From a phage: DNA of 64,000 nucleotides. Positions within the stretch are counted from its first letter, which is position 1. Every line of letters begins with the position of its first letter. A program made the translations under genes and the position numbers. Shown piece after piece: positions 17,464 to 35,725 of this stretch. Where the stretch lies: assembly GCA_017864995.1 (NCBI GenBank), contig GCA_017864995.1_4097.1. One strand, 5' to 3'. Under the pieces are notes generated by a model that saw only the letters and a program-made list of their open reading frames with translations, was not told where the DNA came from and made no database searches.

Positions 17464-17607
17464 ATGATCGCACTGGATTCATTCATCGACGCAGTACTGG
17501 CAAAAACTGGCGAGGATCTGACCGCAGAACAATACGCGATGATCGAGCAATGTCAGCAAAACGGTAAATCGGTGAAAGATACTGTTAAGATTATCCGCAA
17601 GATGTAA
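17464..17607 (+). CDS. hypothetical protein (47 aa)
   Basis: MIALDSFIDAVLAK; class II promoter upstream; terminator downstream. Confidence 0.45.
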   Translation: MIALDSFIDAVLAKTGEDLTAEQYAMIEQCQQNGKSVKDTVKIIRKM

Positions 17608-17613
17608 TATTAT

Positions 17614-17643
17614 AGCCCACTGGTTAACGCTGGTGGGCTTTAA
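17614..17643 (+). terminator. terminator-like hairpin
   Basis: AGCCCAC-N12-GTGGGCT then TTTAATC; stem contains GCTGGTGG. Confidence 0.45.
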
Positions 17644-17706
17644 TCATTTACCCTATACAATGCCAGTACTCAACCGTTTATCTCGTTAGAATGCGTTACA
17701 GGACGT

Positions 17707-17919
17707 TTGACAATGATTAGCATGAAATCAGTACAAAAACAAATAGAAACATTATCAAAAATTAAACGTAAACAGTACTCGTTAGAATATACAATCAATG
17801 GTAACTATCATCTAATGAAAGAGAATAATTTCATTGTCATTGATGAATCATTGCAAGTTATTAGTATAGTACTGAAAGCATTAATCAATGACAGAAAAAA
17901 AATTAAAATAATCTATTGA
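17707..17919 (+). CDS. hypothetical protein (70 aa)
   Basis: ORF only; weak RBS and no clear promoter. Confidence 0.3.
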   Translation: MTMISMKSVQKQIETLSKIKRKQYSLEYTINGNYHLMKENNFIVIDESLQVISIVLKALINDRKKIKIIY

Positions 17920-18240
17920 CAATATCCTCCAGTACTGGCATAATACTTACATCAAGACGAGAACGTCACTAACCCATAGGGTGCACAAATGTAACTATAT
18001 AATATCGATCAATAAATGATCAAAAAAGTACTGGATCAATTTAGCATAAGGCGTATAATTCTGATCAATTCTTGATCAAAGGCAATATACGCAGTTGAAT
18101 TTATATAGACAGTACAAAGGCGTTACTATCCGTGGTAATGCTGGTGGATATGTAGTATCATGTGGTTTGAATAAGATTAGCACTAGTAGTATTATTGTAG
18201 CATTACAGTACTATAGTATTTTTATAATGAGGTTAAAATA

Positions 18241-18498
18241 ATGGCAGTAGGATACGCGAAAGACGGGGCCGAACAAGACGAGATTAACGCAGTGATTCAG
18301 GCAGCCGTTAACCACGCTAGAAAGCAAATTAACGCACAAAGAGAATCACTGGTACATTGCCTCGACTGCGGCGATAAAATCCCTGAGAATCGACGCCAGG
18401 CCGTTATAGGGTGCATGTATTGTATTACTTGCCAGGAGGATCATGATAGTACTTTTAAAAGAGATCCGCGTAATTGTTGGCATAGATCTATGAGATAA
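18241..18498 (+). CDS. TraR/DksA-family C4 zinc-finger protein
   Basis: RKQINAQ...CLDCGDKIPENRRQAVIGCMYCITCQ matches the TraR-type C-x2-C-G-x2-IPE-x-RR...C-x2-CQ pattern. Confidence 0.7.
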   Translation: MAVGYAKDGAEQDEINAVIQAAVNHARKQINAQRESLVHCLDCGDKIPENRRQAVIGCMYCITCQEDHDSTFKRDPRNCWHRSMR

Positions 18499-18505
18499 AA
18501 AGTAA

Positions 18506-18533
18506 TTGACAGTACTGAAAGATAGTGTATAAT
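18506..18533 (+). promoter_or_regulatory. promoter TTGACA-16-TATAAT
   Basis: AGTACTG in spacer; upstream of GNAT-like gene. Confidence 0.5.
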
Positions 18534-18562
18534 GTTTTATATCTTAACTGAGGATAGTAATC

Positions 18563-18919
18563 ATGGGAATACAACATATCACGCGTACTACTGACAATGG
18601 CGAGATCACTGGTTATCAGGTACAGGGCAAAGTAGCACAATTGCAGTACTGGTTTGTTAAACGTGGAATCATTGCACCGGATCTTGATTATGACCGTGTA
18701 GCGTTTATTGATTCTCTTTATGTTGATCCTGATAGTCGGGGCAATGGTGAAGGTAACGAATTAATGAATGCCTTTATTGATGCCGCCGATGATTCAGATT
18801 GTATCATCTTAGAATGCGATACGGGAGAAGATAACGCCTTTAATCTTAAAGAATGGTACGAAGGTTTCGGATTCGAGGTATTGATAGATAGTGAATATCC
18901 TATCATGATTTTATCATAG
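18563..18919 (+). CDS. putative GNAT-like acetyltransferase (small)
   Basis: LYVDPDSRGNGEGNELMNAFIDAA resembles GNAT motif A (R-x-x-G-x-G/A); weak call. Confidence 0.35.
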   Translation: MGIQHITRTTDNGEITGYQVQGKVAQLQYWFVKRGIIAPDLDYDRVAFIDSLYVDPDSRGNGEGNELMNAFIDAADDSDCIILECDTGEDNAFNLKEWYEGFGFEVLIDSEYPIMILS

Positions 18920-18996
18920 TACTTGCATTTAGTTTTCAGTACTGTTATAGTACTTGCATCAAGGGGAAATATCTTCCCCTACTAAGAGGAAATAAA

Positions 18997-19185
18997 ATGG
19001 AAAACTTATCAAGTATTTTAGTACAAGATGATTTCGGTAATCCTGGAAGTGCTATCATTGTTCGGGGCAATAAAGCAACGTTTGTTATTGCTGGTGGACC
19101 CGTACAGCGTAGCATTAAAAATAATGCTGTTACCATTAATAATGTACGCTATCGCTTAGATAAAGAATTAATTCATAAACTGTAA
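18997..19185 (+). CDS. hypothetical protein (62 aa)
   Basis: MENLSSILVQDD; promoter plus hairpin GGGGAAAT..TTCCCC upstream. Confidence 0.55.
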   Translation: MENLSSILVQDDFGNPGSAIIVRGNKATFVIAGGPVQRSIKNNAVTINNVRYRLDKELIHKL

Positions 19186-19270
19186 AAAAGTACTGGACAA
19201 TAGATTATAGTACTGTATAATAGTTTACATGAAGGGGAGAAATGATTCTCCCCACTAAGAGGAAAGAAAA

Positions 19271-19483
19271 ATGCAAGGTCAACTAATCGTTCGTAAATGG
19301 TCTGATACTAACGAAAAACCGTGGGATGTACAATACATCGCCCCCAATGGTGAATCCAGATATCAACCAGGTGTAACGCATAGTACTGAGCAATTCGCCG
19401 CCGCTCATCGCGAACGTCTGTTACAATCAATGCAGCAAGGTTCCGGTGAAAAATTCATTCAGGATCATTGGCTGAAAGATTAA
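19271..19483 (+). CDS. hypothetical protein (70 aa)
   Basis: MQGQLIVRKW; promoter plus hairpin upstream. Confidence 0.55.
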   Translation: MQGQLIVRKWSDTNEKPWDVQYIAPNGESRYQPGVTHSTEQFAAAHRERLLQSMQQGSGEKFIQDHWLKD

Positions 19484-19569
19484 AAAGTACTTGCACAGTA
19501 CTGAATAAAGTGTATAATGTTTTATATCGGAAGGGGAATAGTTCCCCTCCGAACAAAGAGGAAAGTATA

Positions 19570-19743
19570 ATGGTCCAGGTAGAATTAACAGTACTGAAAG
19601 ATCTGTTTTATCGGATTGGTACTACTGGCGAATATCCGAAGGGTGATAATGCAAAACTTTACGTATCACTCGACTTATGGCAACGCGAACAATTAGCAAC
19701 AGCCTGGCGTAAAGGCAAAGCAGATAGCGAGGTGAAAGCATGA
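19570..19743 (+). CDS. hypothetical protein (57 aa)
   Basis: start MVQVELTVLK after RBS AAAGAGGAAAG; track start 19468 lies in promoter. Confidence 0.5.
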   Translation: MVQVELTVLKDLFYRIGTTGEYPKGDNAKLYVSLDLWQREQLATAWRKGKADSEVKA

Positions 19744-19889
19744 AAGAATTCTTATTTGAAGTAGTGTTTCAAGGTGTCGGCAATAACCAACTGATTCGAT
19801 CAAGTGGTTATAATGTTAACCAGGCATGGAATAACATTAAACAAATGTACCCGAACGCTATCACATATCGCAACCCGAAAGAAGTTTAA
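19740..19889 (+). CDS. hypothetical protein (49 aa)
   Basis: MKEFLFEVVFQGVGNN; ATGA overlap with upstream stop. Confidence 0.4.
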   Translation: MKEFLFEVVFQGVGNNQLIRSSGYNVNQAWNNIKQMYPNAITYRNPKEV

Positions 19890-20204
19890 AAAATAATTGA
19901 AAAAGGGATTGACTCCGGTCAGTCCCTTTGCTATTATATACGCATAGAAACAAATCAGCCCACCGGGTGCATAAATGTATCTATTGTTTGCTGGTGGCTA
20001 GTACTGAAAACTATTTTTAAAAAGTACTTGCATTGTACTTATAATCAAGTATAATGTTTTACATCAGGACGGGGAACGAAATAAGTAACCCCGTTAAGTA
20101 GTCCAGGAGTAAGACATACGAAAAACTCCCCTGATAAAATAGTTTGACAATAGAAAGTAAACGAGTATAATACTTACATCAACCACTGATAAGGAAACAT
20201 AAAA

Positions 20205-20480
20205 ATGCGGATTCTACTGACAGCTAACGAAATCGAACAAGTACTGACTACTAACCTGGAAGACTGGAAACGTGAAGCAGATATCCAGGCGGTTCAATGG
20301 TTAAATGATAAGTTAACGCCGGATGACTTAAGCAAGATTGTAGATCCTCAATTCTACGAAGATATCCACGACACCGCGTTAAGCGTCGAGGATGTACTAG
20401 ATAAGCACTTTATTGATACTGATTTGCAGGTTTACGGTCGTAAAAACTTTATCACTATTCACGACATTTACAATAATTAA
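20205..20480 (+). CDS. hypothetical protein (91 aa)
   Basis: MRILLTANEIEQ; downstream of leader element copy 2 and a second promoter. Confidence 0.55.
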   Translation: MRILLTANEIEQVLTTNLEDWKREADIQAVQWLNDKLTPDDLSKIVDPQFYEDIHDTALSVEDVLDKHFIDTDLQVYGRKNFITIHDIYNN

Positions 20481-20567
20481 GTATTGACAAAGTATCTTAG
20501 TACTGTATAATAGTTTACATCGAGAGGGGGGAATGGTTCCCCTCCTAACTAAAAGAGAGAAATAAAA

Positions 20568-20750
20568 ATGGCTAAGTGCACTATCTGCAAGAAAGAAATA
20601 GTATTAGTTCCAAGTGCCCGTGAACGTGCCGCTCGGTTCGGTGGCAAAGCGTCAGACTATACAAAAATGTTTACTACCCATACAGCTTGCCAGGTAGCAA
20701 AACGTTCACAAGAAAGCGTAGAATTAATGCGTAAACTTTCCAAAAAATAA
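20568..20750 (+). CDS. small Cys-containing protein (possible zinc ribbon)
   Basis: MAKCTICKKE...HTAC; promoter plus hairpin upstream. Confidence 0.5.
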   Translation: MAKCTICKKEIVLVPSARERAARFGGKASDYTKMFTTHTACQVAKRSQESVELMRKLSKK

Positions 20751-20838
20751 GTATTGACAAAGTATCTTAGTACTGTATAATAGTTTACATCAAGTGAGGG
20801 GAAACGGTTCCCCTCCTAACAAAGAGAGAGAAATAAAA

Positions 20839-21162
20839 ATGGCTATGATCCTTGCCCAGAAAGTAGAATTGAAAATTGTAACCTCCTTTGACATTAACGT
20901 TAATCGGTGGACTGATTCACACGGCAATACTTACCACTCTTGCTACGTGTCTGCGTTAATTGGCGACCGCTGGGAAGACCTGGGACACGAAACCTTTACA
21001 TACGGTTACGGTACACAAGGCGAATACACGGGCTTGGAGATCATTAAAGAAACCGTTATAGGTTTCAACCCGAAAGAAAAAGTTATTCACCGCATCGAGG
21101 AAGAGATCAACAAAGAAATAACAGTTCGCTACCACGATGTAAAACGTAAGAAAGACATGTAA
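20839..21162 (+). CDS. hypothetical protein, paralog of 14346-14669
   Basis: MAMILAQKVEL..NRWTDSHGNTYHSC..FTYGYG..VKRKKDM. Confidence 0.6.
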   Translation: MAMILAQKVELKIVTSFDINVNRWTDSHGNTYHSCYVSALIGDRWEDLGHETFTYGYGTQGEYTGLEIIKETVIGFNPKEKVIHRIEEEINKEITVRYHDVKRKKDM

Positions 21163-21257
21163 TAGAATCCATTTAAAGTACTATTTGACATTGCCCAGAT
21201 AGTACTTTATAATAGACTCTAACTTGTAGTACTAACTCAACCAATAGGATGTATACC

Positions 21258-21653
21258 ATGATTACTAAATTCTACGCTACCCGTGAAGCTGCCCGTATTG
21301 TTGCACGCGAGGAAGGAGCAGCATTTAAAGACATGGGAACGACAGCACCGAAAGGTCAACGCTGGGCCGTACAGTTCAAAGAAATCTCTGATATTGTGAA
21401 TTCACCTGAGCCAGTACTAACAGCAGCAGAACTAAAACGAGCGGATATGCTGGCGGCAATACTTGACGCACAAGATGAGTTTATCGCTGATTCTGATATC
21501 AAAGTACAGGTAAACCACACCGCATGGACTCACGCGGATCACCTGGCAAACCTTAAGCGTCCAAGTGAACTGATTCGCAACCAGAAAGAGATCCGACATG
21601 ATCGTAAGGGTAATCGTGTAACAGTATACAGTAAACGCCGCCAGGTTATCTAA
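21258..21653 (+). CDS. hypothetical protein, paralog of 9421-9687
   Basis: MITKFYATREAARIVAREEGAAFKDMG...RKGNRVTVYSKRR. Confidence 0.6.
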   Translation: MITKFYATREAARIVAREEGAAFKDMGTTAPKGQRWAVQFKEISDIVNSPEPVLTAAELKRADMLAAILDAQDEFIADSDIKVQVNHTAWTHADHLANLKRPSELIRNQKEIRHDRKGNRVTVYSKRRQVI

Positions 21654-21675
21654 TAACTTGCAGTACTAACAACAC

Positions 21676-21700
21676 GGCGGGATCAGTTCCCGCCTTTTTT
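21676..21700 (+). terminator. rho-independent terminator
   Basis: GGCGGG-atcagtt-CCCGCC then TTTTTT. Confidence 0.65.
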
Positions 21701-21714
21701 ATAGGACAAACAAA

Positions 21715-21969
21715 ATGATTAAGGTTCAACTATATAAAGATAACATCTTACGGGTACACTATAAAGCACCGAAGAGAATCATCACAAAGGCCGTACAGCT
21801 TGCTAATGAGTTTATTAATGGTAACCTATTACCTAGGAAGTTAAGCAACGGGAAACTGCGTGTAATCGACGTGGACACTAACAACAGGATAGTAATCGAG
21901 AACACAGGAAAGATAAACCTTTATGAGCATCAACAATACAATAAGAAAATAAAACTAATATCACGTTGA
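21715..21969 (+). CDS. hypothetical basic protein (84 aa)
   Basis: MIKVQLYKDN; RBS AGGA. Confidence 0.5.
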   Translation: MIKVQLYKDNILRVHYKAPKRIITKAVQLANEFINGNLLPRKLSNGKLRVIDVDTNNRIVIENTGKINLYEHQQYNKKIKLISR

Positions 21970-22022
21970 CAGTACTCAATTGTTTTAGTACTATGTACAC
22001 ATACCAACACGGGAGAAACAAA

Positions 22023-22241
22023 ATGAAATTATCTAAAATCGAAAAGAAAACTATTGATGAAGCAGTTAAGCACGGTTATACCTTTCGTAATGATTCACAT
22101 TTTACCAATTTTCAACAAGGGTATCGTACTATTAAAAAACTAATTGACAAAGGTTTATTAGTTGAAGTCAATAACGGTAACGGTATCGAGTATCAACCAA
22201 CACAGGACGCATTTTATTTTAAGAAATATAATATTATCTAA
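22023..22241 (+). CDS. hypothetical protein (72 aa)
   Basis: start MKLSKIEKK; shares a duplicated ~60-nt promoter/leader with 22299 gene. Confidence 0.5.
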   Translation: MKLSKIEKKTIDEAVKHGYTFRNDSHFTNFQQGYRTIKKLIDKGLLVEVNNGNGIEYQPTQDAFYFKKYNII

Positions 22242-22298
22242 TTGACAGTACTCAAATGTTTTAGTACTATATGTACATACCAACACGGGGGAAACAAA

Positions 22299-22541
22299 AT
22301 GATTACTTTAGAAAAACGTATCAAAGAAACTACATCGCTGGTGGAACTGTTAACAGTACTCAAATGTAAAACAACACCATTCAGCACGCCGGACTTTATT
22401 AATATGGTTGATGTTAATGGTCGCTATCGTATCACGGTCGAACAAGGAGCGGCGAAAGTATTCAGTACTAAAAACACGAAGGAAGTGATCCACGCCGTTA
22501 ATGTTAAAAAAGTAGTTGCCATTGATAGTAAAGTACTGTAA
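22299..22541 (+). CDS. hypothetical protein (80 aa)
   Basis: start MITLEKRIKE; promoter/leader 22243-22301 near-identical to 21966-22025. Confidence 0.5.
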   Translation: MITLEKRIKETTSLVELLTVLKCKTTPFSTPDFINMVDVNGRYRITVEQGAAKVFSTKNTKEVIHAVNVKKVVAIDSKVL

Positions 22542-22572
22542 TATAGTTTCATTAACTCAAGGAGAACATGCA

Positions 22573-23157
22573 ATGCGTAATTATACAAAATTCATCCGTA
22601 CACTGTCAGAAATGGAAACCAACAAAGAGATCCTTTCAGCTTGTCGGTTAGCTGACCTGGAGATCATCGGTGCTGGTTCTTCCCGTATAGTTTTCGCTTT
22701 AAATGATCGGTTAGTGATTAAGGTCGCGAATTGTGATGCGGGTGTCGAACAAAATGAAACTGAATGTAAGGTATGGAATTTTTTAGACTATGACCGCCCT
22801 CAGTTGAAACAGTACTTTGCAAAGGTGCATATGCATTTATGCGATCCTGATAATATGTTTATCGTTATGGATCGGTTGAGTACTGCAAGCAAAGGCAGTG
22901 TGAAGCACGTAAACGCGTGCAATGAATTAAAGTACAATATTAAACGTAATGCAATCGAACGCCAGCACCGCTTTGCTGATGCACTACAACACGTTGATGA
23001 TACATTATCAACACTAACGATAAGAGATATCAGAAAACAGAATATCGGCCAGGATCGTAATGGACTTATTAAAGTACTTGATTACGGTTTAACCAGCAAT
23101 ATCTGGAATCAGTACTATAAAAAGCGTGATGTGGCAGCAAGTAAAGTAACACGATAA
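22573..23157 (+). CDS. putative protein-kinase-like protein
   Basis: IGAGSSRIVF (Gly-rich loop), VIKVA (Lys), IRDIRKQNIG (HRD-like loop), LDYG (DFG-like); RBS AAGGAGAA. Confidence 0.4.
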   Translation: MRNYTKFIRTLSEMETNKEILSACRLADLEIIGAGSSRIVFALNDRLVIKVANCDAGVEQNETECKVWNFLDYDRPQLKQYFAKVHMHLCDPDNMFIVMDRLSTASKGSVKHVNACNELKYNIKRNAIERQHRFADALQHVDDTLSTLTIRDIRKQNIGQDRNGLIKVLDYGLTSNIWNQYYKKRDVAASKVTR

Positions 23158-23378
23158 AAAAGATTAAAAAAGGGATTGACTTCGGTCAGTCCCTTTGCTA
23201 TTATATATTCATTGAGAGATAACTCACTGACCCATAGGGTGCGGAAGTGTATCTATTATATAAGTATTCAGTACTGAAAACTATTTTTAAAAAAGTACTT
23301 GCATTGTACTTAGAATCAAGTATAATGTTTTATATCGAGAGGGGGAAATGGTTCTCCCTGGCAATAAGGAATAAAATC

Positions 23379-23600
23379 ATGACTACAATGACTTGCATTT
23401 ACGCTTCCAATCGTCTGAATGATGCGGCCTTTAATGTTGATTCAGAATATCAATGTTATCGGGATGAAAATAAAAAAGTTTTTGTAGTTGATAATAATGG
23501 TTTCCATATTGAATTGCAATCCGGCTTCACTGGCGTTGATGGTAAATCAGTATGGGGCGTACAGGATGATAAAGGTACATATCATTTTAAACGTAATTAA
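23379..23600 (+). CDS. hypothetical protein (73 aa)
   Basis: start MTTMTCIYASN after promoter plus hairpin. Confidence 0.5.
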   Translation: MTTMTCIYASNRLNDAAFNVDSEYQCYRDENKKVFVVDNNGFHIELQSGFTGVDGKSVWGVQDDKGTYHFKRN

Positions 23601-23683
23601 GTATTGACAAAGTATCTTAGTACTGTATAATAGTTTACATCAAGGGGAGAATAGTTCTCCCCAATACAATAAGGAATAAAATC

Positions 23684-24091
23684 ATGTCTACTACTACTAA
23701 TCTCGCTCGGAACATCACTAACGATAAAAATCATGCTGCAATGGTCGCTGGTTACATTGAAGCTATGCAATTCAGTACTGTACATAATGATAACGGCGAT
23801 TACCTGGAAGATTATGAGTTATCTGATGAAGCACGTCAAGCGGCGGTGATTGCATGTTCTCGCTTCATTGAGAAACACGGTAATGATCTGGAAGTAGTTC
23901 GCGGTATGTTTATTGATTACGGTTATGAGCAAGCTGGTCATGATCTGTTCCTTACCCGCGAAGGTCACGGAACTGGTTTTTGGGATCGTGGTTTAGGTCA
24001 CTATGGCGATGTATTCACGAAGTACTGCGAAGAAATCAACGTTTGCGATCCCTATGTAGGCGATGATAACTTAATCTATATGGGCGAATAA
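23684..24091 (+). CDS. hypothetical acidic protein (135 aa)
   Basis: MSTTTNLARN; promoter plus hairpin GGGGAGAA..TTCTCCCC upstream. Confidence 0.6.
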   Translation: MSTTTNLARNITNDKNHAAMVAGYIEAMQFSTVHNDNGDYLEDYELSDEARQAAVIACSRFIEKHGNDLEVVRGMFIDYGYEQAGHDLFLTREGHGTGFWDRGLGHYGDVFTKYCEEINVCDPYVGDDNLIYMGE

Positions 24092-24178
24092 AAGTATTTG
24101 ACAAAGTATATCAGTACTGTATAATAGTTTACATCAAGGGGAGAACTATTCTCCCCACCAATAAAAGGAAACAAAATT

Positions 24179-24451
24179 ATGTCCAGCTACTCCGCTACTA
24201 TGATCATTAAAGATATGAACGGTAATCCTACTTCTGCTGGTGGATCATTTGGAAATATTAACTTAGATGGGCGGTTATCCATGCAATCAGCCATCGATGC
24301 AGCGAAAGAAGTTTTTAAGAATGAATGTACTGTTAGTAAGCTGGATTATATGGGATTCGCTATCGAGAAAACTACTCGTTTTGTGAACTACAAAAATCCA
24401 CTGATGATTGATACTAACCTGAAAGCTAACGAAGTGGGGTACTTATTATGA
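24179..24451 (+). CDS. hypothetical protein (90 aa)
   Basis: MSSYSATMIIKD; promoter plus hairpin upstream. Confidence 0.55.
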   Translation: MSSYSATMIIKDMNGNPTSAGGSFGNINLDGRLSMQSAIDAAKEVFKNECTVSKLDYMGFAIEKTTRFVNYKNPLMIDTNLKANEVGYLL

Positions 24452-24639
24452 CAGTAGAAGAAGTTAAAAAAGTACTGGCAGTACTACGATATCATAATCA
24501 TTGCAAGGTGAAGAATGATCCTGATTATCTTGATTCATCCCTGGAGGAAGACACCTTGAACGCTATAAGCCATATGCAGACATTAGCAAAGCGTATGACT
24601 GAAAAGAACATGCCGGACTATATCGGAAATAAAATTTAA
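24448..24639 (+). CDS. hypothetical protein (63 aa)
   Basis: MTVEEVKKVLAV; ATGA overlap with upstream stop. Confidence 0.5.
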   Translation: MTVEEVKKVLAVLRYHNHCKVKNDPDYLDSSLEEDTLNAISHMQTLAKRMTEKNMPDYIGNKI

Positions 24640-24726
24640 AAAGTACTTGCATTGTAGTTAGATTAACGTATAATGTTTTATATCGAGAGGGGGAAATGGT
24701 TTCCCCTCAAGTCCAGGAGATACACC

Positions 24727-24990
24727 ATGAACACTATCGAAATCACTATCAATGCACACGTATACGACAACGTAGTACTGCAAACTACTATGACCGCCAA
24801 TGATACCAGTACTTTGCGGAATACTGTTATTAGTGCCGTATGTGCCGCTATCGGTGATGTCGCCCTGGAAAATGCAAAACACGTAAACGATGGTTTCACT
24901 ATGTGCAAACGTGATAACGCAAAACATATCATCGTGGAAGGTTACGGCGGTGTAGAATTTAATGTTTATATGAAAAAAGTACTTGCATAA
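24727..24990 (+). CDS. hypothetical protein (87 aa)
   Basis: start MNTIEITINAH after RBS CAGGAGA; track start 24673 lies in promoter. Confidence 0.55.
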   Translation: MNTIEITINAHVYDNVVLQTTMTANDTSTLRNTVISAVCAAIGDVALENAKHVNDGFTMCKRDNAKHIIVEGYGGVEFNVYMKKVLA

Positions 24991-25057
24991 TAACTAAAAC
25001 AAAGTATAATGTTTTGCATAGGGGGAGATATCCTCCCCCACTAAAAGGAGTAATAAA

Positions 25058-25282
25058 ATGGCTAACTTTGATGAACTGATGCGGGAAGTAGCTAACCTGG
25101 CAGAAGAGAAGAAATCATTCGATTCTATCTATAACACCGCTCACCGTGATTCAGTACTGGCATGTAACCAGGAACAAAAAGATGAACTAATCGCCACCTA
25201 TCATGAAGCATGGAAGTACTACCGACAATGGGAGAAAGAAGAAAGTGAGTCTACCATTGACGGCCTCAATAATCTAATCTAA
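25058..25282 (+). CDS. hypothetical protein (74 aa)
   Basis: MANFDELMREVA; promoter plus hairpin GGGGGAGATATCCTCCCCC upstream. Confidence 0.55.
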   Translation: MANFDELMREVANLAEEKKSFDSIYNTAHRDSVLACNQEQKDELIATYHEAWKYYRQWEKEESESTIDGLNNLI

Positions 25283-25358
25283 AAGTTTTATTTCAGTACT
25301 ATTGACATAGCTTGATAGTACTGATGTAATAACTTTACTAACTACAAGGGGAAACATA

Positions 25359-25616
25359 ATGGATCAGTTCACACAATATCGGGTAAATCCTCAAGCTATG
25401 GCCTACGTAGAAGACCATAAAACGTTACCAGTACTGCAACCAGTTAAAGGCCATATCTATCGTGCAATGTCGTGGTGTACGGCCCAGGATGGCTATAAAA
25501 CCGTAGCCGTTGGTATGTATTGCGGTAATGGTGAATGGTTTGATCCAAATAATCCGGTAGCCATTGACAGTACTGAAAAAATGAAATGGGCCGACTACAT
25601 CGAAGATATTTCATAA
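25359..25616 (+). CDS. hypothetical protein (85 aa)
   Basis: MDQFTQYRVNPQ; class II promoter upstream. Confidence 0.55.
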   Translation: MDQFTQYRVNPQAMAYVEDHKTLPVLQPVKGHIYRAMSWCTAQDGYKTVAVGMYCGNGEWFDPNNPVAIDSTEKMKWADYIEDIS

Positions 25617-25706
25617 AAACTATTTGACAGTACTAACCAGTAATGTATAATGTTTTACATAGAGCGGGGGAATAGTTCTCCCGCCAATAGTTTGGAGTAA
25701 AACATT

Positions 25707-25907
25707 ATGTCTATCGCTATCGCCCTGGTTGAAGTACTGAAAGAAGCTAAAGCCAACCAGATCGACGTAAAGATCCAGGAACTACAAAACGGCTTAATCG
25801 GCTGTACTTGTACCGCTGGTGGAGCGGCAGACTATCGAGAACACGAATCACTCGAATCACTGGTTCGGTATCTTACCATGATCGTTGATGATTGGAGAAT
25901 CATCTAA
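25707..25907 (+). CDS. hypothetical protein (66 aa)
   Basis: MSIAIALVEVLK; promoter plus hairpin GCGGGGGAA..TTCTCCCGC upstream. Confidence 0.55.
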   Translation: MSIAIALVEVLKEAKANQIDVKIQELQNGLIGCTCTAGGAADYREHESLESLVRYLTMIVDDWRII

Positions 25908-26152
25908 CAAAAAAGAATAAAAAAAGGGATTGACTCCGGTCAGTCCCTTTGCTATTATATACGCATAGACAAAAACTAGCCCACAGGGTGCATAGGTGTA
26001 TCCAAAATATATAGTTAATAACGGTGAGTAACTATCTGCTGGTGGAGTGAAAACTATTAATAAAAAAGTATTGACAAAGTATATCAGTACTGCGATAATG
26101 TATCTCGTAGGGCGGCAATGGTGCGACGGCCCACAAAGTTAGGAGATTCACC

Positions 26153-26488
26153 ATGAGTACTTCAATCGCTATCGTTAAAGCTTTCATCCGTACCAATGAT
26201 TCATCTGTATACTGCGACGGCCTTGATCGTAAAGTATCATTCTCATTCATTGTCGCACAAACGGCTGACGGTTCTCGGTATATCCTTAACGATAGCGAAG
26301 TAAATCATTACTACTTCACTAAAGCTACTGGCTTTAAACGCATCGATGCTGATGTAGTATACGCTAAGATGAATAAGCTGGTAGATAAGATTAACGCTAA
26401 AGGGACTATCGATTTACTGTACTGGACCGAAACCGATCCAGAATACGGCTCTCACCGTTACCTGAATCCAGGTATTAAAATGAAATAG
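26153..26488 (+). CDS. hypothetical protein (111 aa)
   Basis: MSTSIAIVKAF; RBS AGGAGA. Confidence 0.55.
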   Translation: MSTSIAIVKAFIRTNDSSVYCDGLDRKVSFSFIVAQTADGSRYILNDSEVNHYYFTKATGFKRIDADVVYAKMNKLVDKINAKGTIDLLYWTETDPEYGSHRYLNPGIKMK

Positions 26489-26573
26489 TACTTGCATAGT
26501 ACTTAGATTCATGTATAATGTTTTACATAGAGAGGGGGAAATGGTTCTCCCTCCTAAATTAAGGAGTTTTATC

Positions 26574-26975
26574 ATGACCTTCTCAATCACTTCCTTCGCT
26601 GACGTTTTAGTACTGGCCCGGACTTTTGGTAAAGCTGGCCTTGAACACGCTGTAAGTAATGGTCATATGCACCCTGAATATTGCCGCATCATTGGAAGCT
26701 GCAAACGTTGGGCAGTGTCCCGTAATATTGAGATTGAAAACTTCAATGACGGCAACAACGAATATACAGTTGATGCAGTATTCGAAGCCGTTGATCTCGG
26801 CGGTATCTATAACACTAACCTGAATGATGTGCGTATCGTTCGCACGGGGTTCGGTGCTTATGATGTATCTATCCGTGACGCTATGGACAAGGGATACATT
26901 AGCAAGGACCAGTTAGCTTACATCATGCAGCAAACTAAGGAGCGTAATGAAGCACGTACTATCTTAGGGTTGTAA
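26574..26975 (+). CDS. hypothetical protein (133 aa)
   Basis: start MTFSITSFADV after RBS AAGGAG; promoter plus hairpin upstream. Confidence 0.55.
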   Translation: MTFSITSFADVLVLARTFGKAGLEHAVSNGHMHPEYCRIIGSCKRWAVSRNIEIENFNDGNNEYTVDAVFEAVDLGGIYNTNLNDVRIVRTGFGAYDVSIRDAMDKGYISKDQLAYIMQQTKERNEARTILGL

Positions 26976-27033
26976 GCGTTACACATCATAGGCCGCTCTC
27001 TAGCGGCCTTAACTATATCAGGAGTACATACAC

Positions 27034-27243
27034 ATGATCTATACAGTATATAGCGTTCTAGGCACTATTACAGGCGTACATGATAACGTCGATGGTGCTA
27101 TGCGTACAGTACTGCAACAGGTTCCACTAAAGCCTAAGACCATTAAGCAGATGACAGCACGACTAACCAGGGCGACGGCTGGCGTGGAAGTATGGCAGGA
27201 CTATGGGGATACACAGATAATCGTAAGCGTAACGAAGGATTAA
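27034..27243 (+). CDS. hypothetical protein (69 aa)
   Basis: MIYTVYSVLGTI; RBS CAGGAG. Confidence 0.5.
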   Translation: MIYTVYSVLGTITGVHDNVDGAMRTVLQQVPLKPKTIKQMTARLTRATAGVEVWQDYGDTQIIVSVTKD

Positions 27244-27271
27244 TGCGTAAAGGGATTTAGTACTGAATCAT

Positions 27272-27335
27272 AAAAAAGTCAAGGCATTTTTAAACTTCAG
27301 CGTTAAAAAAATGCATAGGTAATCCCTTGACTTTT
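27272..27335. repeat. nested inverted repeat (large palindrome)
   Basis: AAAAAGTCAAGG..GCATTTTTAAAC-ttcagc-GTTAAAAAAATGC..CCTTGACTTTT. Confidence 0.45.
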
Positions 27336-27434
27336 ATGAATAAAAAGGGATTGGACTATGGCAAAATGCGTAGGGGGCTAAAGGGCGGGTAACCTTAGCG
27401 ACTTCGATAAAGGGGTATTACTAATAAAATGTTA

Positions 27435-27462
27435 TTGACTTTTTATACGAATCGTATATTAT
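27435..27462 (+). promoter_or_regulatory. promoter TTGACT-16-TATTAT for Fam2 array
   Basis: only clear promoter between 27250 and the first Fam2 gene. Confidence 0.5.
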
Positions 27463-27492: not shown

Positions 27493-27690
27493 ATGCGTAT
27501 TTTAACTCAAGAAGAGCACAACCACACACTCATATCCAACATGGCATATATCCTACATATGTCACATATCCGTGGTATTGCATATAAGCGTGAATTGGTT
27601 ATGAAACTTTTCATAGGAACTAACTATCAAGAAAAGTATATCGAACTATACTTACAAGAATTACGAAGGGACATAAAAGGTAGACTATGA
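27493..27690 (+). CDS. Fam2 small protein
   Basis: motif FIGTNYQEKYI; first of tandem array. Confidence 0.55.
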   Translation: MRILTQEEHNHTLISNMAYILHMSHIRGIAYKRELVMKLFIGTNYQEKYIELYLQELRRDIKGRL

Positions 27691-27881
27691 TAATTTTAAA
27701 TAAAGAAGAATATCAAGAACTGTTACGTAAAAACTACGTAAAGATTTACAATACAGACACACACGTAGAACGAATGGAGTTATACCTTTTGATTACTTTG
27801 GGAACTAACTATCAGGAAAGATGGGTGATTCAATATATGGATACATTGAAAAATAAAATATTGTCCACGAGGAAACAATGA
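27687..27881 (+). CDS. Fam2 small protein
   Basis: ITLGTNYQERWV; ATGA overlap. Confidence 0.55.
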   Translation: MIILNKEEYQELLRKNYVKIYNTDTHVERMELYLLITLGTNYQERWVIQYMDTLKNKILSTRKQ

Positions 27882-28087
27882 AAACTATAACACGAACCCA
27901 ATCATTCGGTCTTATCTTGAAATACATGGACTTAATGTTTGATATCAGCAAAGACCTTTCTAAAACTGAAATCCAAGTTGCAAGAGCAGAGATCCGCATG
28001 TTGGCTGTACTGAACACAAACCATCAGGAAGAGTATGTTGACGATTGGATTCATTTTTTAATAGAAGATATTAAGAGTAAACTATGA
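27878..28087 (+). CDS. Fam2 small protein
   Basis: AVLNTNHQEEYV. Confidence 0.55.
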   Translation: MKTITRTQSFGLILKYMDLMFDISKDLSKTEIQVARAEIRMLAVLNTNHQEEYVDDWIHFLIEDIKSKL

Positions 28088-28296
28088 TTTTTTTAACACC
28101 AGAAGAATATAAGATACGTTTTGTTTCTGTCCAGAATAAAATCTTAATTATATACAATTCAAATGCAGACCTTAACTTATCAAGGGTATTAGAAAAAGAT
28201 TTACTTATGGGTGCATTTTTGGATACAGACTTTCAGGAGTATTATGTAGGGGAATACTTAATTGCACTCCAGAATTACATTAAGAGTAAACTATGA
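28084..28296 (+). CDS. Fam2 small protein
   Basis: GAFLDTDFQEYYV. Confidence 0.55.
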   Translation: MIFLTPEEYKIRFVSVQNKILIIYNSNADLNLSRVLEKDLLMGAFLDTDFQEYYVGEYLIALQNYIKSKL

Positions 28297-28505
28297 ATAG
28301 CATTAACTCAAATCTATATACCGAACGCGTCGCTGCAAGACAACTTGAAATTCTCATAGTATATGAAGAGACTGATGATTTAAACTTAGCATTAGTATTG
28401 GAAAATGATATACTATTGGGTGCATTCCTCGGCACAGATTATCAGGAGCACTTCTTGAATGAGTATATAATTGCACTCCAGAAATACATTAAGAGCAAAC
28501 TATGA
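28293..28505 (+). CDS. Fam2 small protein
   Basis: GAFLGTDYQEHFL; close paralog of 28084. Confidence 0.55.
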   Translation: MNSINSNLYTERVAARQLEILIVYEETDDLNLALVLENDILLGAFLGTDYQEHFLNEYIIALQKYIKSKL

Positions 28506-28720
28506 AACATTTAAGTAATTCCGAGAAGAATAAAATTATCATTGCTGCAATAAACAAATATTTTACACTTCCTCACACAGAAGGTTTATGTGTAAGGGAA
28601 CACAGGATAAACACCACCGATATACGCATGATGGCTGTACTGGGGACGAACTTTCAGGAAGAGTATGTTGTTGCACACATAGTTGCCCTCACTGATCTAA
28701 TAAGGGACAAATGTAAATGA
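28502..28720 (+). CDS. Fam2 small protein
   Basis: AVLGTNFQEEYV. Confidence 0.55.
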   Translation: MKHLSNSEKNKIIIAAINKYFTLPHTEGLCVREHRINTTDIRMMAVLGTNFQEEYVVAHIVALTDLIRDKCK

Positions 28721-28974
28721 AACACTTAACTGATGATGAATTTGAAACTATAATTCGTAAACTAACCCCCATCACAAGGATAGTCTACGGTGACCCCAGC
28801 CTTACATGGAACCAAATGCGAGCTAAAGTTAATGAGCTATGGTTGCTGTACTTTATGGGGACTCAATATCAAGATAAGTTTTGCACAGAATATATCGAAC
28901 AATTAACGAATGTTATACAGGATAAACTAGATGATTATTTGCTCACAAAACATGAAGACTTTATCAGGAGTTGA
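28717..28974 (+). CDS. Fam2 small protein
   Basis: YFMGTQYQDKFC. Confidence 0.55.
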   Translation: MKHLTDDEFETIIRKLTPITRIVYGDPSLTWNQMRAKVNELWLLYFMGTQYQDKFCTEYIEQLTNVIQDKLDDYLLTKHEDFIRS

Positions 28975-29203
28975 GTATCAAACTGCCCTATTCTCTTTAA
29001 TCCATGCCCTTAGAAAAAACAATGCCTTATATGGTGCACCTGAAGTGGATGTTATCAACGGTGAACTTTATCTTATGAAATTCATTGGAACAAACTATCA
29101 AGATCTGTTCATTCAACGATACTTATCAGCATTAAGAAACCAAATCCAATATAAAACCATCAAGGCAAAAAAAGAATGGAATAAACAATGCGACACAGAC
29201 TAA
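28931..29203 (+). CDS. Fam2 small protein
   Basis: KFIGTNYQDLFI; alternative start at 28952. Confidence 0.5.
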   Translation: MIICSQNMKTLSGVEYQTALFSLIHALRKNNALYGAPEVDVINGELYLMKFIGTNYQDLFIQRYLSALRNQIQYKTIKAKKEWNKQCDTD

Positions 29204-29439
29204 ATCACAAAATGTATTGTAAACTATTGCAGACACTGGCACAGAAACACTATGACACGGTATCTGGAATATTACCCTATGATATCATGCGTTTACTTCA
29301 CTGTGAGGCCGAGATGCTTGTACTGATGACAGGCACAGATAAAAAAGCAATTGCCAAATCAATAGATATGTTCATCGAAGCACAATGTCAACACATTAGA
29401 ACCGAGATATGGAGGCGAGAGAATGATAACACTAAATGA
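29188..29439 (+). CDS. Fam2-like small protein (degenerate motif)
   Basis: LMTGTDKKAI in motif position. Confidence 0.45.
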   Translation: MRHRLNHKMYCKLLQTLAQKHYDTVSGILPYDIMRLLHCEAEMLVLMTGTDKKAIAKSIDMFIEAQCQHIRTEIWRRENDNTK

Positions 29440-29638
29440 GTATCAGTATCATTGGAGGTTACAAGCTATAAGAAGGAAAGTTGTTAGTATTTCTTTAGAC
29501 AAGTCTATTGCACAAGAGGACAAATGTGTTATAATAGCTGAAATGAAGTTGGGTGCTTTCGTAGGAACAAACTATCAAAACATCTACACTGACGTATTGT
29601 TAAGTGCCTTACGTAACAAGGTGATATCAAAAGAATGA
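29423..29638 (+). CDS. Fam2 small protein
   Basis: AFVGTNYQNIYT. Confidence 0.55.
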   Translation: MITLNEYQYHWRLQAIRRKVVSISLDKSIAQEDKCVIIAEMKLGAFVGTNYQNIYTDVLLSALRNKVISKE

Positions 29639-29853
29639 GAAAATTACAAGGCTTTGAATACATCAGACTCCTGAAAACATGTGCCAACAGAAGAGTAAAG
29701 ATTCAATCTGATAAGAGCATCCCTGCCAACCTAAAACATGCATTGATAGCTGAACTCTATGCAGGGGCACTCATAGGGACAAACTATCAACAAATGTATA
29801 TAGACATGTGGGTTGATGCATTAGTCAAGGAGGTCAAAAGTAAATGCAAATGA
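29635..29853 (+). CDS. Fam2 small protein
   Basis: ALIGTNYQQMYI. Confidence 0.55.
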   Translation: MRKLQGFEYIRLLKTCANRRVKIQSDKSIPANLKHALIAELYAGALIGTNYQQMYIDMWVDALVKEVKSKCK

Positions 29854-30062
29854 TTAATTTAAGTAAAGATGAATATTATGAACGTCTTGCAAAAACTTAT
29901 CCAGCACGTAACGCCGTTTATAATAGTAACATTATTGAACGCTCAAAGAAGTTGATTGTAGTAAATGAGATTAAGATGCTTTCAGTCTTAGGAACAAACT
30001 ATCAAGAGAATGCTGTACTGTTGTTAATTGATGCCCTCAAGAGAGAGATACAAAGTAAATGA
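29844..30062 (+). CDS. Fam2 small protein
   Basis: SVLGTNYQENAV; N-term MQMINLSKDEY. Confidence 0.55.
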   Translation: MQMINLSKDEYYERLAKTYPARNAVYNSNIIERSKKLIVVNEIKMLSVLGTNYQENAVLLLIDALKREIQSK

Positions 30063-30307
30063 TTAATTTATCTTTCCATGAATATCAAAAACGTTTAAAT
30101 GCATCAAGGGATATAAGGATTCAAATCTTTAATAACAAAAGATTGAAACCTGACACCAGAAGAATCAAAATAATAGAAGCAGAGTTATGCAACTTCCTGG
30201 GGACGAACCATCAGGAAGGTAAGATAAAAAACTATCTTAGAGAACTCATGATTTGTATCGAAAATAAATGTGAGGTTGATGAACATGCAAATGATCAATT
30301 TAAGTAA
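30059..30307 (+). CDS. Fam2 small protein
   Basis: NFLGTNHQEGKI. Confidence 0.55.
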   Translation: MINLSFHEYQKRLNASRDIRIQIFNNKRLKPDTRRIKIIEAELCNFLGTNHQEGKIKNYLRELMICIENKCEVDEHANDQFK

Positions 30308-30548
30308 AGATGAATATACCGAGCGTATGACAAAAATTACACACAAACGTAATACAATCTATCACGACCAAAAAATTCAACACAGTAAGAAAATGATTAT
30401 GATGCGTGAGTTAAAGATGGGTGTATTCTTGGGAACAAACTATCAAGAGCCAGAAGTAAATCGCTTAATCGCGGAGTTACTACTGGAAATCAGAGGTAAG
30501 CTGTACTTTCATCAAATGACCCAACCACTGAGGTGTACTGATCGATGA
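30285..30548 (+). CDS. Fam2 small protein
   Basis: VFLGTNYQEPEV; start MQMINLSKDEY as in 29844 gene (track 30270). Confidence 0.5.
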   Translation: MQMINLSKDEYTERMTKITHKRNTIYHDQKIQHSKKMIMMRELKMGVFLGTNYQEPEVNRLIAELLLEIRGKLYFHQMTQPLRCTDR

Positions 30549-30796
30549 ATGCGATGAATAAAATTAATAACATCAGAATAGCAGAAAGATTTGATAGACT
30601 TGGGGAAGCTCTGAGACGATACGATAAGGAATATGGTCATTTGAGCTTTTCTATAGAAAAGAGATATGAACTTGAAGCAGAGTTTAAAATGCAGTTCCTT
30701 TTAGGTACACAGTATCAAAACCAATATGTAGAAAAATGGATTTCACTTTTAATCCAGACAATTTACGTAAGGAACATTAAATGCAAAATGAAATGA
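30545..30796 (+). CDS. Fam2 small protein
   Basis: FLLGTQYQNQYV. Confidence 0.55.
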   Translation: MNAMNKINNIRIAERFDRLGEALRRYDKEYGHLSFSIEKRYELEAEFKMQFLLGTQYQNQYVEKWISLLIQTIYVRNIKCKMK

Positions 30797-31017
30797 TATA
30801 CTTAACACATGATGAGTTAACAGAAAGACTAGATAAATCCAAAAAACTTACAAAATATCTTCCACACAACCCAAACCAAACCCCAGCAGAAAGGAGTGCA
30901 GAAGTTTTATTTCATCAACTATCATACCTTCTTGGAACTGATAGACAAGAGTATCACATTGAACGTATAATTAAATATCTTAAAATTACTATTATGGAAA
31001 AAGTAAATGCAAAGTGA
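30781..31017 (+). CDS. Fam2 small protein
   Basis: YLLGTDRQEYHI; N-term MQNEMIYLTHDE. Confidence 0.55.
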   Translation: MQNEMIYLTHDELTERLDKSKKLTKYLPHNPNQTPAERSAEVLFHQLSYLLGTDRQEYHIERIIKYLKITIMEKVNAK

Positions 31018-31237
31018 AATGATATACTTAACGAATGAAGAATTTCAAGAGAAGATGTTAAAAGCCAATAACATTACTCTTAAGTTCGTTCCAAATCAAT
31101 CAATATATGAAATGTCTGCGAATGTATTGTTTCAGAAGCTACCATACGTTCTTGGAACTGATAAACAAGAATTTATGGTTCAAAATATGATTGAACATCT
31201 TGTAATGAGTATTAAGGAAAAAGTAAATGCAAAATGA
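31007..31237 (+). CDS. Fam2 small protein
   Basis: YVLGTDKQEFMV; N-term MQSEMIYLTNEE. Confidence 0.55.
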   Translation: MQSEMIYLTNEEFQEKMLKANNITLKFVPNQSIYEMSANVLFQKLPYVLGTDKQEFMVQNMIEHLVMSIKEKVNAK

Positions 31238-31484
31238 AATGAAATACTTAACAGACGATGAGTTAAAAGAACGATTAATTAAATCCAGAAAACTTACAAA
31301 TCAACTTCCAAACGACACAAACAAGTCACATGCCGAAAGGAGTGCAGAAGTTTTATACATTCAACTCCTGTACTTTCTTGGAACTGACAGACAAGAGTAT
31401 TACATTGAAAGTATGCTTCGATATCTTAAATTCTCTATAAAGGAAAAGATACATGCTCAAGAATTTAAAAATCCTAACAGTTAA
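31227..31484 (+). CDS. Fam2 small protein
   Basis: YFLGTDRQEYYI; N-term MQNEMKYLTDDE. Confidence 0.55.
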   Translation: MQNEMKYLTDDELKERLIKSRKLTNQLPNDTNKSHAERSAEVLYIQLLYFLGTDRQEYYIESMLRYLKFSIKEKIHAQEFKNPNS

Positions 31485-31695
31485 TGAATATCATAAGATT
31501 GTAATGAAAACTAATAGTGCAATTTCTAAAAAATCAAACCCAAAGTACATACTGGAACACACATTTGAAGAACGTCAATTAGCTTTAGTTGAAGCAAAAC
31601 TTCTTGCACTCCTAGGAACAAACTACCAAGAAGAATACATCAGAAAACTAATATACCTTTTAACTAAACACATCAGGAAAAGAAAAAAAGCATGA
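31453..31695 (+). CDS. Fam2 small protein
   Basis: ALLGTNYQEEYI. Confidence 0.55.
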   Translation: MLKNLKILTVNEYHKIVMKTNSAISKKSNPKYILEHTFEERQLALVEAKLLALLGTNYQEEYIRKLIYLLTKHIRKRKKA

Positions 31696-31922
31696 AGCAC
31701 TTGACAGATGATGAACATGGGCTTATAGTAATGGATGTAATCAACATCGAATACAAAAAGTTGATACGCTACCGTTGTTATGAAGATAAGCAACTCGTTC
31801 TAGCAGAACAGAAGTTGTTTCGACTCTTAAACACAAACTTCCAAGCACAATACGAAGAATCGTATATGTACCTTTTGGCGAGGAAAGCAAAAAGAGATTA
31901 TGAAAATTTTAAACCACAGTGA
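31692..31922 (+). CDS. Fam2 small protein
   Basis: RLLNTNFQAQYE. Confidence 0.5.
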   Translation: MKHLTDDEHGLIVMDVINIEYKKLIRYRCYEDKQLVLAEQKLFRLLNTNFQAQYEESYMYLLARKAKRDYENFKPQ

Positions 31923-32115
31923 ACAAACAGAATTGTTAATCTTTAATACAAGTAAATTCTTAAACATAACATTGTCTGATATAGATGAGGATGAAAAAGA
32001 GTTACTTAGAGCAGATTTAAGAGTTCTTTTATATGTTGGAACTAACTTCCAAGAGCAATTCGTTGAGGACTACATCGATGAACTTAAAGAATCTGTACTG
32101 AGAACATGCAAATGA
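31900..32115 (+). CDS. Fam2 small protein
   Basis: LYVGTNFQEQFV. Confidence 0.55.
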   Translation: MKILNHSEQTELLIFNTSKFLNITLSDIDEDEKELLRADLRVLLYVGTNFQEQFVEDYIDELKESVLRTCK

Positions 32116-32321
32116 AAATCCTTTCACCAAGTGAATACCACGAACTATTAAGTAGTTTAATTCTAAAATTGTATATAGCAAAGACCACAGATTTACCTGA
32201 TGAAGAAAAAAATATTCTAATGAGTGAAATCTATGTTCAAGCTACCCTAGGGACTAACTATCAAGAATGTAATATTAATGATTACATCAAAGAACTAAAA
32301 AGGTTTATCCAATGCAAATGA
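32106..32321 (+). CDS. Fam2 small protein
   Basis: ATLGTNYQECNI. Confidence 0.55.
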   Translation: MQMKILSPSEYHELLSSLILKLYIAKTTDLPDEEKNILMSEIYVQATLGTNYQECNINDYIKELKRFIQCK

Positions 32322-32563
32322 AAATCATTACCGAAGCAGAATACCTAACAATCATAAATGGACTGTTTTCGAAGTTATTTGCCATTAACACATCAAAACT
32401 TCCAGATACTGATAAAATTATTAAGTTAAATGAAATCTACGTTCAAGCAACTCTAGGAACAAACTATCAAGAAGCCAATGTGTATAATTACATTAATACA
32501 CTCAAAAGGGTAATACAATTAAAATGCACAGACAGCACAAACAGCCAATACACAAACCCCTAG
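32312..32563 (+). CDS. Fam2 small protein
   Basis: ATLGTNYQEANV; close paralog of 32106. Confidence 0.55.
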   Translation: MQMKIITEAEYLTIINGLFSKLFAINTSKLPDTDKIIKLNEIYVQATLGTNYQEANVYNYINTLKRVIQLKCTDSTNSQYTNP

Positions 32564-32763
32564 GAACAGCAGAATACATTGAACTAATGGCTGCAAACTT
32601 CTCATCCTTTAAGAAACTGATGCAAGAATCAAATAATGATTTAGAATATCATATCAAAAGTTCAGATTTAAGATTACTACTCACTCTAGGAACAGACAGT
32701 CAGTACAAATTCGTACAGGAACATATTAGAGCACTTTTAAATGGCATCAGGGATAAACTATGA
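32524..32763 (+). CDS. Fam2 small protein
   Basis: LTLGTDSQYKFV. Confidence 0.5.
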   Translation: MHRQHKQPIHKPLGTAEYIELMAANFSSFKKLMQESNNDLEYHIKSSDLRLLLTLGTDSQYKFVQEHIRALLNGIRDKL

Positions 32764-32975
32764 AGGAAATATCAAATCAAGAGTACTTGGCACTATTCAG
32801 GAAGAATAATCACAAATATATGGCACTTGATTCAAGAACTGATATAAGTGAACTTGAAAAAAATCTTTTGCGTTCAGAGATGATAGTACTGACACTCTTA
32901 GGAACACAGCATCAAGAGAGAACTGTTAATTCACACATAGGTATTCTTATACAGATAGTACAGGAAAAGATATGA
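32760..32975 (+). CDS. Fam2 small protein
   Basis: LLGTQHQERTV. Confidence 0.55.
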   Translation: MKEISNQEYLALFRKNNHKYMALDSRTDISELEKNLLRSEMIVLTLLGTQHQERTVNSHIGILIQIVQEKI

Positions 32976-33193
32976 GAATCATAACACAACAAGATATTCT
33001 TAAGTTCACAAGGGTTCATGCATCTGAATTTGATGCTATATTATCAAAAAGTTACAACAACCCTTATACAGAAGATGTACACTACAATGAATTATGGATG
33101 TATATACTTTTAGGTACAGATCATCAAGAGCAAGCAGTACAGAAGTATTTGTTAGCTTTACGTGATGCTACTGCTAATGGAGTACGTGTTTAA
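32972..33193 (+). CDS. Fam2 small protein
   Basis: ILLGTDHQEQAV. Confidence 0.55.
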   Translation: MRIITQQDILKFTRVHASEFDAILSKSYNNPYTEDVHYNELWMYILLGTDHQEQAVQKYLLALRDATANGVRV

Positions 33194-33194
33194 T

Positions 33195-33446
33195 ATGAAA
33201 GTACTGACAGAACTAGAAATGTATCATAGATTTAATAAGTACTATCATTTACTTAAGCCTATACAGAGAATTAAATGTCCATTTGAAGAGAAACAGGTTT
33301 TAATCTATGAGCACAAGTTCTTTGTATCATTAGGTACAGATCAACAAGAGTACTATTTGACGTTGTACTTGATTACATTAATAGATTTCATTCACTATAA
33401 AACCACACAATCTAAACAAGCTAAGAAAGAGCAATATGAAAACTAA
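33195..33446 (+). CDS. Fam2 small protein
   Basis: VSLGTDQQEYYL; start MKVLTELEMY (track 33162). Confidence 0.5.
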   Translation: MKVLTELEMYHRFNKYYHLLKPIQRIKCPFEEKQVLIYEHKFFVSLGTDQQEYYLTLYLITLIDFIHYKTTQSKQAKKEQYEN

Positions 33447-34133: not shown

Positions 34134-34349
34134 ATGAAAAGATTATCATACGAAGATTATCGCAAGATTCGCGGTATGTTGCGACCAGAAATTCAAAGAA
34201 TTAATTCACTTCCTATATCTAATGCAGAATGTTCAGTACTGAAAGATGAGTTAATATTAAAACACACAGTAGGAACTAACTATCAAGCTGATAGTGTTCG
34301 ATATCTAATTTGGGGATTAATATGCATAATAAAGTCCAGACAAGCTTGA
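34134..34349 (+). CDS. Fam2 small protein (dispersed copy)
   Basis: HTVGTNYQADSV. Confidence 0.5.
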   Translation: MKRLSYEDYRKIRGMLRPEIQRINSLPISNAECSVLKDELILKHTVGTNYQADSVRYLIWGLICIIKSRQA

Positions 34350-35312: not shown

Positions 35313-35489
35313 ATGTTGAAGTACAAAGAGTTTATTAAAGATGTATATGTAGATCCTTTCAATATAAAATTATCAGAGTTCGAAGTATCATTTTATCTAG
35401 GGACAATAGTACAGGATCAATACGTTGATAATCTAATAAGGTGCATGAAAAAGGAGATACAATGCAGACCCAAAGGTATAAAAAGATAG
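35313..35489 (+). CDS. Fam2-like small protein
   Basis: FYLGTIVQDQYV; track start 35277 is TTG, ATG at 35313 preferred. Confidence 0.4.
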   Translation: MLKYKEFIKDVYVDPFNIKLSEFEVSFYLGTIVQDQYVDNLIRCMKKEIQCRPKGIKR

Positions 35490-35725
35490 ATGCTTATTTG
35501 TATGCTTCAAAGTACAGGGATTTTTGTTTACGAGGGGGAGAGGAAGATTTCGCTCTGAGATTATCTGAATTTAATATGTTATTTTATCTTGGTACAAAAG
35601 AACAAGAAGATACAGTACAGAAATTTCTCAATCATCTTGTACAAAAAATTAATATGCAAATTTTGATGCATAAGTTACAGAATGAGATAAATGAATATGA
35701 ATCCAGAAATAGTTCAGGATCTTAA
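35462..35725 (+). CDS. Fam2-like small protein
   Basis: FYLGTKEQEDTV; start MQTQRYKK after RBS AAGGAGA (track 35441 is GTG). Confidence 0.45.
   Translation: MQTQRYKKIDAYLYASKYRDFCLRGGEEDFALRLSEFNMLFYLGTKEQEDTVQKFLNHLVQKINMQILMHKLQNEINEYESRNSSGS

Follow-up and report, generated by a model that had tools for sequence, protein, structure and literature searches.

A lineage-specific tandem family of small predicted three-helix proteins adjoins the terminal repeat of an Asteriusvirus

The region from 27493 to 33446 of the window (the whole 64,000-nucleotide stretch of DNA analyzed here, from an Asteriusvirus, i.e. a PBECO4/121Q-like jumbo coliphage of E. coli) encodes most of a genuine lineage-specific multigene family of ~30 soluble ~70-aa proteins with a common predicted three-helix bundle, the translation of which we infer. 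We are nearly certain that this family, referred to here as Fam2, consists of genuine coding genes in tandem and that unequal recombination has shaped it. The explanation we prefer overall, to which we give slightly less than an even chance, is that a real family of early, non-virion, diversified binders was assembled by accordion-like expansion and contraction.

Organization and copy number of the array

As claimed in an earlier note on this DNA, the ORF list contains 27 consecutive plus-strand ORFs, which span 64–94 aa when the first start codon is taken. Using the aligned starts, i.e. the start codons that line up across paralogs, the same 27 contiguous plus-strand genes encode 64–85 aa (Table 1, which also lists alternative starts). 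A hidden Markov model (HMM) built from the 27 ORFs agreed with the ORF list, as it recovered each of them when the window was scanned in six frames (59–90 bits). It also found exactly the five scattered copies that had been reported previously and, beyond these 27 + 5 copies, nothing below E=0.06 in the 64 kb. The frequent 4-nt (ATGA) overlaps were likewise evident, as they occur at 16 of the 26 junctions with aligned starts and at 12 of 26 with the first possible start. With aligned starts, three further junctions have a 1-nt spacer and none of the 26 has a real intergenic gap.

Table 1. Positions of the Fam2 genes and associated features in the window
Feature	Position	Strand	Length	Alternative start	Support	Remarks
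Direct terminal repeat (DTR)	6583..27395	+	20.8 kb			fEgEco12 positions 1 and 20,993 map to 6583 and 27395
Sigma-70-like promoter	27435..27462	+				TTGACT-16-TATTAT; 40 nt into unique sequence
f01	27493..27690	+	65 aa		ORF list + HMM	
f02	27687..27881	+	64 aa		ORF list + HMM	ATGA overlap
f03	27878..28087	+	69 aa		ORF list + HMM	ATGA overlap; motif NTNHQE
f04	28084..28296	+	70 aa		ORF list + HMM	ATGA overlap; 53% aa identity to f05 (recent pair)
f05	28293..28505	+	70 aa		ORF list + HMM	ATGA overlap
f06	28502..28720	+	72 aa		ORF list + HMM	ATGA overlap
f07	28717..28974	+	85 aa			ATGA overlap; modelled (pLDDT 97.4); extra gene at f06/f07 junction in WPEC3 and fEgEco12
f08	28952..29203	+	83 aa (aligned start)	28931	ORF list	
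f09	29188..29439	+	83 aa		ORF list + HMM	Degenerate member: GTDKK + 6-aa insertion
f10	29423..29638	+	71 aa		ORF list + HMM	
f11	29635..29853	+	72 aa		ORF list	ATGA overlap
f12	29850..30062	+	70 aa (aligned start)	29844		ATGA overlap; extra gene here in WPEC3 and fEgEco12
f13	30059..30307	+	82 aa		ORF list	ATGA overlap
f14	30291..30548	+	85 aa (aligned start)	30270, 30279	ORF list	
f15	30545..30796	+	83 aa		ORF list	ATGA overlap
f16	30793..31017	+	74 aa	30781		Recent triplet f16/f17/f18 (44–62% aa identity)
f17	31019..31237	+	72 aa	31007		Copy missing from fEgEco12
f18	31239..31484	+	81 aa	31227	ORF list	
f19	31453..31695	+	80 aa			Also modelled (pLDDT 90.6); pI 10
f20	31692..31922	+	76 aa		ORF list	ATGA overlap; motif NTNFQA
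f21	31900..32115	+	71 aa		ORF list	pI 4.5
f22	32112..32321	+	69 aa	32106		ATGA overlap; 56% aa identity to f23 (recent pair)
f23	32318..32563	+	81 aa	32312	ORF list	ATGA overlap
f24	32524..32763	+	79 aa		ORF list + HMM	
f25	32760..32975	+	71 aa		ORF list	ATGA overlap
f26	32972..33193	+	73 aa		ORF list	ATGA overlap
f27	33195..33446	+	83 aa (aligned start)	GTG 33162		Ends contiguous array
Outlying copy	34134..34349	+	71 aa		HMM 34131–34346	Behind two Fam3 genes
Outlying copy	35313..35489	+	58 aa	TTG 35277	HMM 35253–35486	
Outlying copy	35462..35725	+	87 aa	GTG 35441	HMM 35432–35722	
Outlying copy	48341..48559	+	72 aa		HMM 48335–48556	Motif GSNKQD
Outlying copy	48537..48728	+	63 aa		HMM 48522–48725	

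All 10 of the members tested matched phrog_4148, which PHROGs annotates as "unknown function". The family is confined to 36 Asteriusvirus records and was seen in this lineage only. At 50% identity, just 95 representatives were obtained from 1.84 billion proteins, and each of these is unfused and 52–121 aa long. The family also forms an array on a divergent metagenomic contig, indicating a conserved architecture.

Copy number does vary among relatives, as the earlier note had proposed checking: ~18–29 contiguous copies occur across 10 genomes. Whole-gene indels distinguish the array from those of WPEC3 and fEgEco12 (97–98% identical phages), with overlaps of 15–112 nt at gene junctions or 5' ends. 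Adjacent copies are 30.8% identical vs. 24.9% for the average pair (permutation p<1e-4), while per-gene identity to phage UB ranges from 71% to 100% with dS of 0–1.17, indicative of mosaic alleles. Collinear orthologs of most copies exist throughout the genus, and phages isolated on Salmonella have them as well; thus, the repertoire seems mostly old and stable, and less changeable than a fast arms race predicts. The array most likely grew through tandem duplication, with whole-gene expansion and contraction continuing via unequal homologous recombination (an "accordion") and co-infecting relatives probably swapping alleles as well. The scattered copies had been taken to suggest modular shuffling between arrays, an idea that is weakly supported. 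They occupy the same places in fEgEco12 and therefore look like old placements, rather than the products of ongoing exchange. Unit-length gain and loss within the array, combined with allele-level mosaicism between phages, is well supported instead.

Protein conservation and predicted fold

The motif described previously is conserved, as G48, T49, Q52, and L63 are each found in at least 90% of the copies and most also carry an N-terminal L-[TS]-x-x-E-Y; the mean paralog identity is about 25%. The earlier note had named a DNA-level repeat as a challenge to its claim of a protein-level paralog family. Were the ORFs spurious, the periodic motif would stem from such a repeat or from an RNA element, and a ~20-nt core (GGAACAAACTATCAAGA) does recur at 77–100% identity, with the motif Asn encoded by AAC in all 17 copies having Asn there. 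However, Tandem Repeats Finder detected no tandem DNA repeat across the array, nucleotide similarity around the motif is only 60–76%, and synonymous codons vary at other conserved residues (four for Gly48 and five for Leu63). The reading frame also shifts from gene to gene with the protein motif retained, and the AlphaFold models described below would not be confident if the protein sequences did not form a coherent, related set. Differences from the UB, PBECO4, 121Q, and A4 orthologs fall preferentially at third codon positions, with a pooled dN/dS of 0.34–0.39. The claim of a protein-level family thus stands, and its DNA-level alternative is effectively refuted.

Omega is 0.18–0.24 for core columns and 0.41–0.50 for paralog-variable columns, both <1, and by these values there was no sign of pervasive positive selection at the variable sites. 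From the sequence comparisons, each copy's own exposed surface appears to be under purifying selection in other phages. These values bear upon the proposal that the array is dispensable ballast, i.e. tandem duplicates that piled up without a specific role following capsid enlargement, according to the ratchet of Hua et al. These authors propose that phages can reach jumbo genome size by tandem duplication, and they refer to a 121Q array (PMC5646251); in addition, the Fam2 omega of 0.38 exceeds that of both the downstream arrays (0.25) and the neighboring DTR genes (0.21). Nevertheless, the open frame is intact in every copy, even the paralog-specific positions have a dN/dS far below 1, orthologs are retained throughout the genus and in the divergent metagenomic relative, and the Asn codon bias falls at a structural site, all of which make ballast seem quite improbable.

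The small helical domain that had been predicted was recovered in two AlphaFold models, as f07 and f19 (25% identical) both yielded a three-helix bundle of the same topology. In these models, the conserved residues appear to build the hydrophobic core and to mark where the helices begin and end: L-T-x-x-E-Y is predicted to open helix 1, while G-T-N-Y-Q-E would form the junction from helix 2 to helix 3, with Gly terminating helix 2, Thr bridging to the N-terminal strand, and N/D-x-Q-E opening helix 3. The exposed positions are wholly different between copies (pI 4.4–10), and none of the Fam2 proteins has a transmembrane segment. The median pI of 8.9, with 19 of 32 copies basic, would suit paralogs that bind phage or host DNA/RNA rather than host proteins, such as small transcription/translation modulators that time the phage program. 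Small helical bundles would also suit this role, the modelled conserved polar pole at two parallel helix N-termini has a geometry that might bind phosphate, and the ~35-copy zinc-ribbon expansion of phage G has been proposed to encode transcription factors (PMC7824862). We consider such a role unlikely, as nine copies are plainly acidic, with net charges as low as -7, and the family has neither matches to helix-turn-helix or other nucleic-acid-binding families nor fold neighbors of this kind.

Position beside the terminal repeat and expression

Using the DTR length from PMC13070987, the first Fam2 gene begins 98 nt past the end of the DTR, and an identical boundary was derived from vB_Ec-M-J (PMC13070987, Table 2). 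The DTR contains ~56 small genes, most of them preceded by near-consensus sigma-70 promoters, and in the related phage PA5oct the DTR genes are early genes (PMC7318152). The promoter reported ahead of the array is indeed present and is kept in fEgEco12, WPEC3, UB, 121Q, phAPEC6, and Turkey5. A GGAG Shine-Dalgarno sequence lies between it and the first gene (27483–27486), and both elements are retained even in the divergent Turkey5. Further promoter-like hexamer pairs occur within the array at 28726, 30942, and 31701, but the 24–37 kb stretch that includes it has no excess of such sites (52 vs. 66.7 ± 8.6 in shuffled sequence). Consistent with the earlier description of a terminator-free array, no convincing plus-strand terminator was found inside it. 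Host RNA polymerase most likely transcribes the array as a single long, translationally coupled message that would start at the conserved sigma-70-type promoter just past the left terminal repeat and extend the early-gene block.

Early timing, polycistronic transcription, and translation of the array are inferred from these features, and on balance we consider the Fam2 proteins to be probably early and non-structural. In phAPEC6, gp467c–gp489c contribute none of the 62 virion proteins identified by mass spectrometry (PMC7247149), a negative result for very small proteins from a single study. Tight translational coupling is equally typical of the subunits of one complex and of independent effectors. 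Accordingly, the coupled operon might supply roughly equimolar related subunits that co-assemble or that each chaperone one fiber/whisker protein, and the ATGA overlaps, the lack of intergenic gaps, the conservation of each individual copy, and the elaborate "hairy" virions of Asteriusviruses (PMC7247149, PMC5646251) would all accommodate such an assembly role. We regard it as a long shot, given the absence of Fam2 from the phAPEC6 virion proteome and the location of the array beside the early terminal-repeat block, distant from the structural genes. Furthermore, near-identical phages differ in copy number, which a complex of fixed stoichiometry would tolerate poorly.

Possible role and relation to known systems

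The preferred reading is that the array provides a co-expressed repertoire of small non-virion binders, each paralog having a different host or competitor target protein, which would serve host takeover or counter-defense. That the proteins are diversified binders of host or defense targets is a tentative proposal. Neither sequence nor fold neighbors point to a function, and there was no sequence or fold similarity to known anti-defense, antitoxin, immunity, or host-takeover proteins. The same pattern of diversification and co-expression would also fit weapons or shields used between phages, which would mediate superinfection exclusion or neutralize effectors that rival phages or satellites deploy, instead of engaging the host. 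The frequent allele exchange between relatives implies common co-infection and is compatible with this role, but the proteins lack the membrane segments typical of exclusion proteins, and its chances appear very slim.

The existence of the array was already noted for 121Q, while the family is otherwise uncharacterized. Hua et al. 2017 (mBio, PMC5646251) devote one sentence to the 121Q array, which has 23 contiguous Fam2 copies plus 2 nearby and is most likely the array described here. Their mention does not extend to fold, selection, position, or function, and the copies are actually ~25% identical. Another very large lineage-specific expansion of tiny proteins in a jumbo phage is the ~35-copy family of Bacillus phage G (PMC7824862), although those proteins are Cys-rich zinc ribbons, whereas Fam2 is all-helical without conserved Cys and the lineages are unrelated. 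Analogous only in its design is the protein A Z-domain/affibody, which similarly has a conserved three-helix core with freely variable exposed positions; its Foldseek matches to Fam2 were not significant (E 5.6–8.2), its helices differ in length, and it is not a homolog.

The terminal-redundancy module of Bacillus phage SPO1 and the pre-early genes of T5 are host-takeover modules located in or beside terminal repeats. Like these modules and that of PA5oct (PMC7318152), the array consists of small genes of unassigned function at the leading genome end, with consensus-like promoters and, for Fam2 presumably, transcription by host RNA polymerase. The genes of those modules are mostly mutually unrelated, lie within the repeat, and have one promoter each, whereas Fam2 is one expanded family that lies immediately beyond the repeat under the control of one promoter. 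The SUKH/Imm immunity arrays of polymorphic-toxin loci (PMC3113570, PMC3482391) are also runs of small, fast-diverging paralogs, thought to be a repertoire of specific inhibitors. Unlike those arrays, which lie on bacterial chromosomes, Fam2 resides in a phage and has no toxin gene nearby, and the two share no sequence or fold relationship.

Among large eukaryotic DNA viruses, the MGF families of ASFV are terminal multigene families. The poxvirus K3L amplification is known as a "genomic accordion" (Elde et al. 2012, as cited in PMC13359090). Both resemble Fam2 in having non-structural tandem paralogs near genome ends with unit-length copy-number changes between close isolates. There is no homology, however, and each Fam2 copy is ancient and conserved in its own right, whereas the eukaryotic-virus accordions are recent identical amplifications. 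The eukaryotic-virus families also have demonstrated roles in host range or immune evasion, while that of Fam2 is proposed. If the Fam2 proteins are indeed diversified binders, the array would find its counterparts in poly-immunity arrays or in these terminal multigene families of large eukaryotic DNA viruses.

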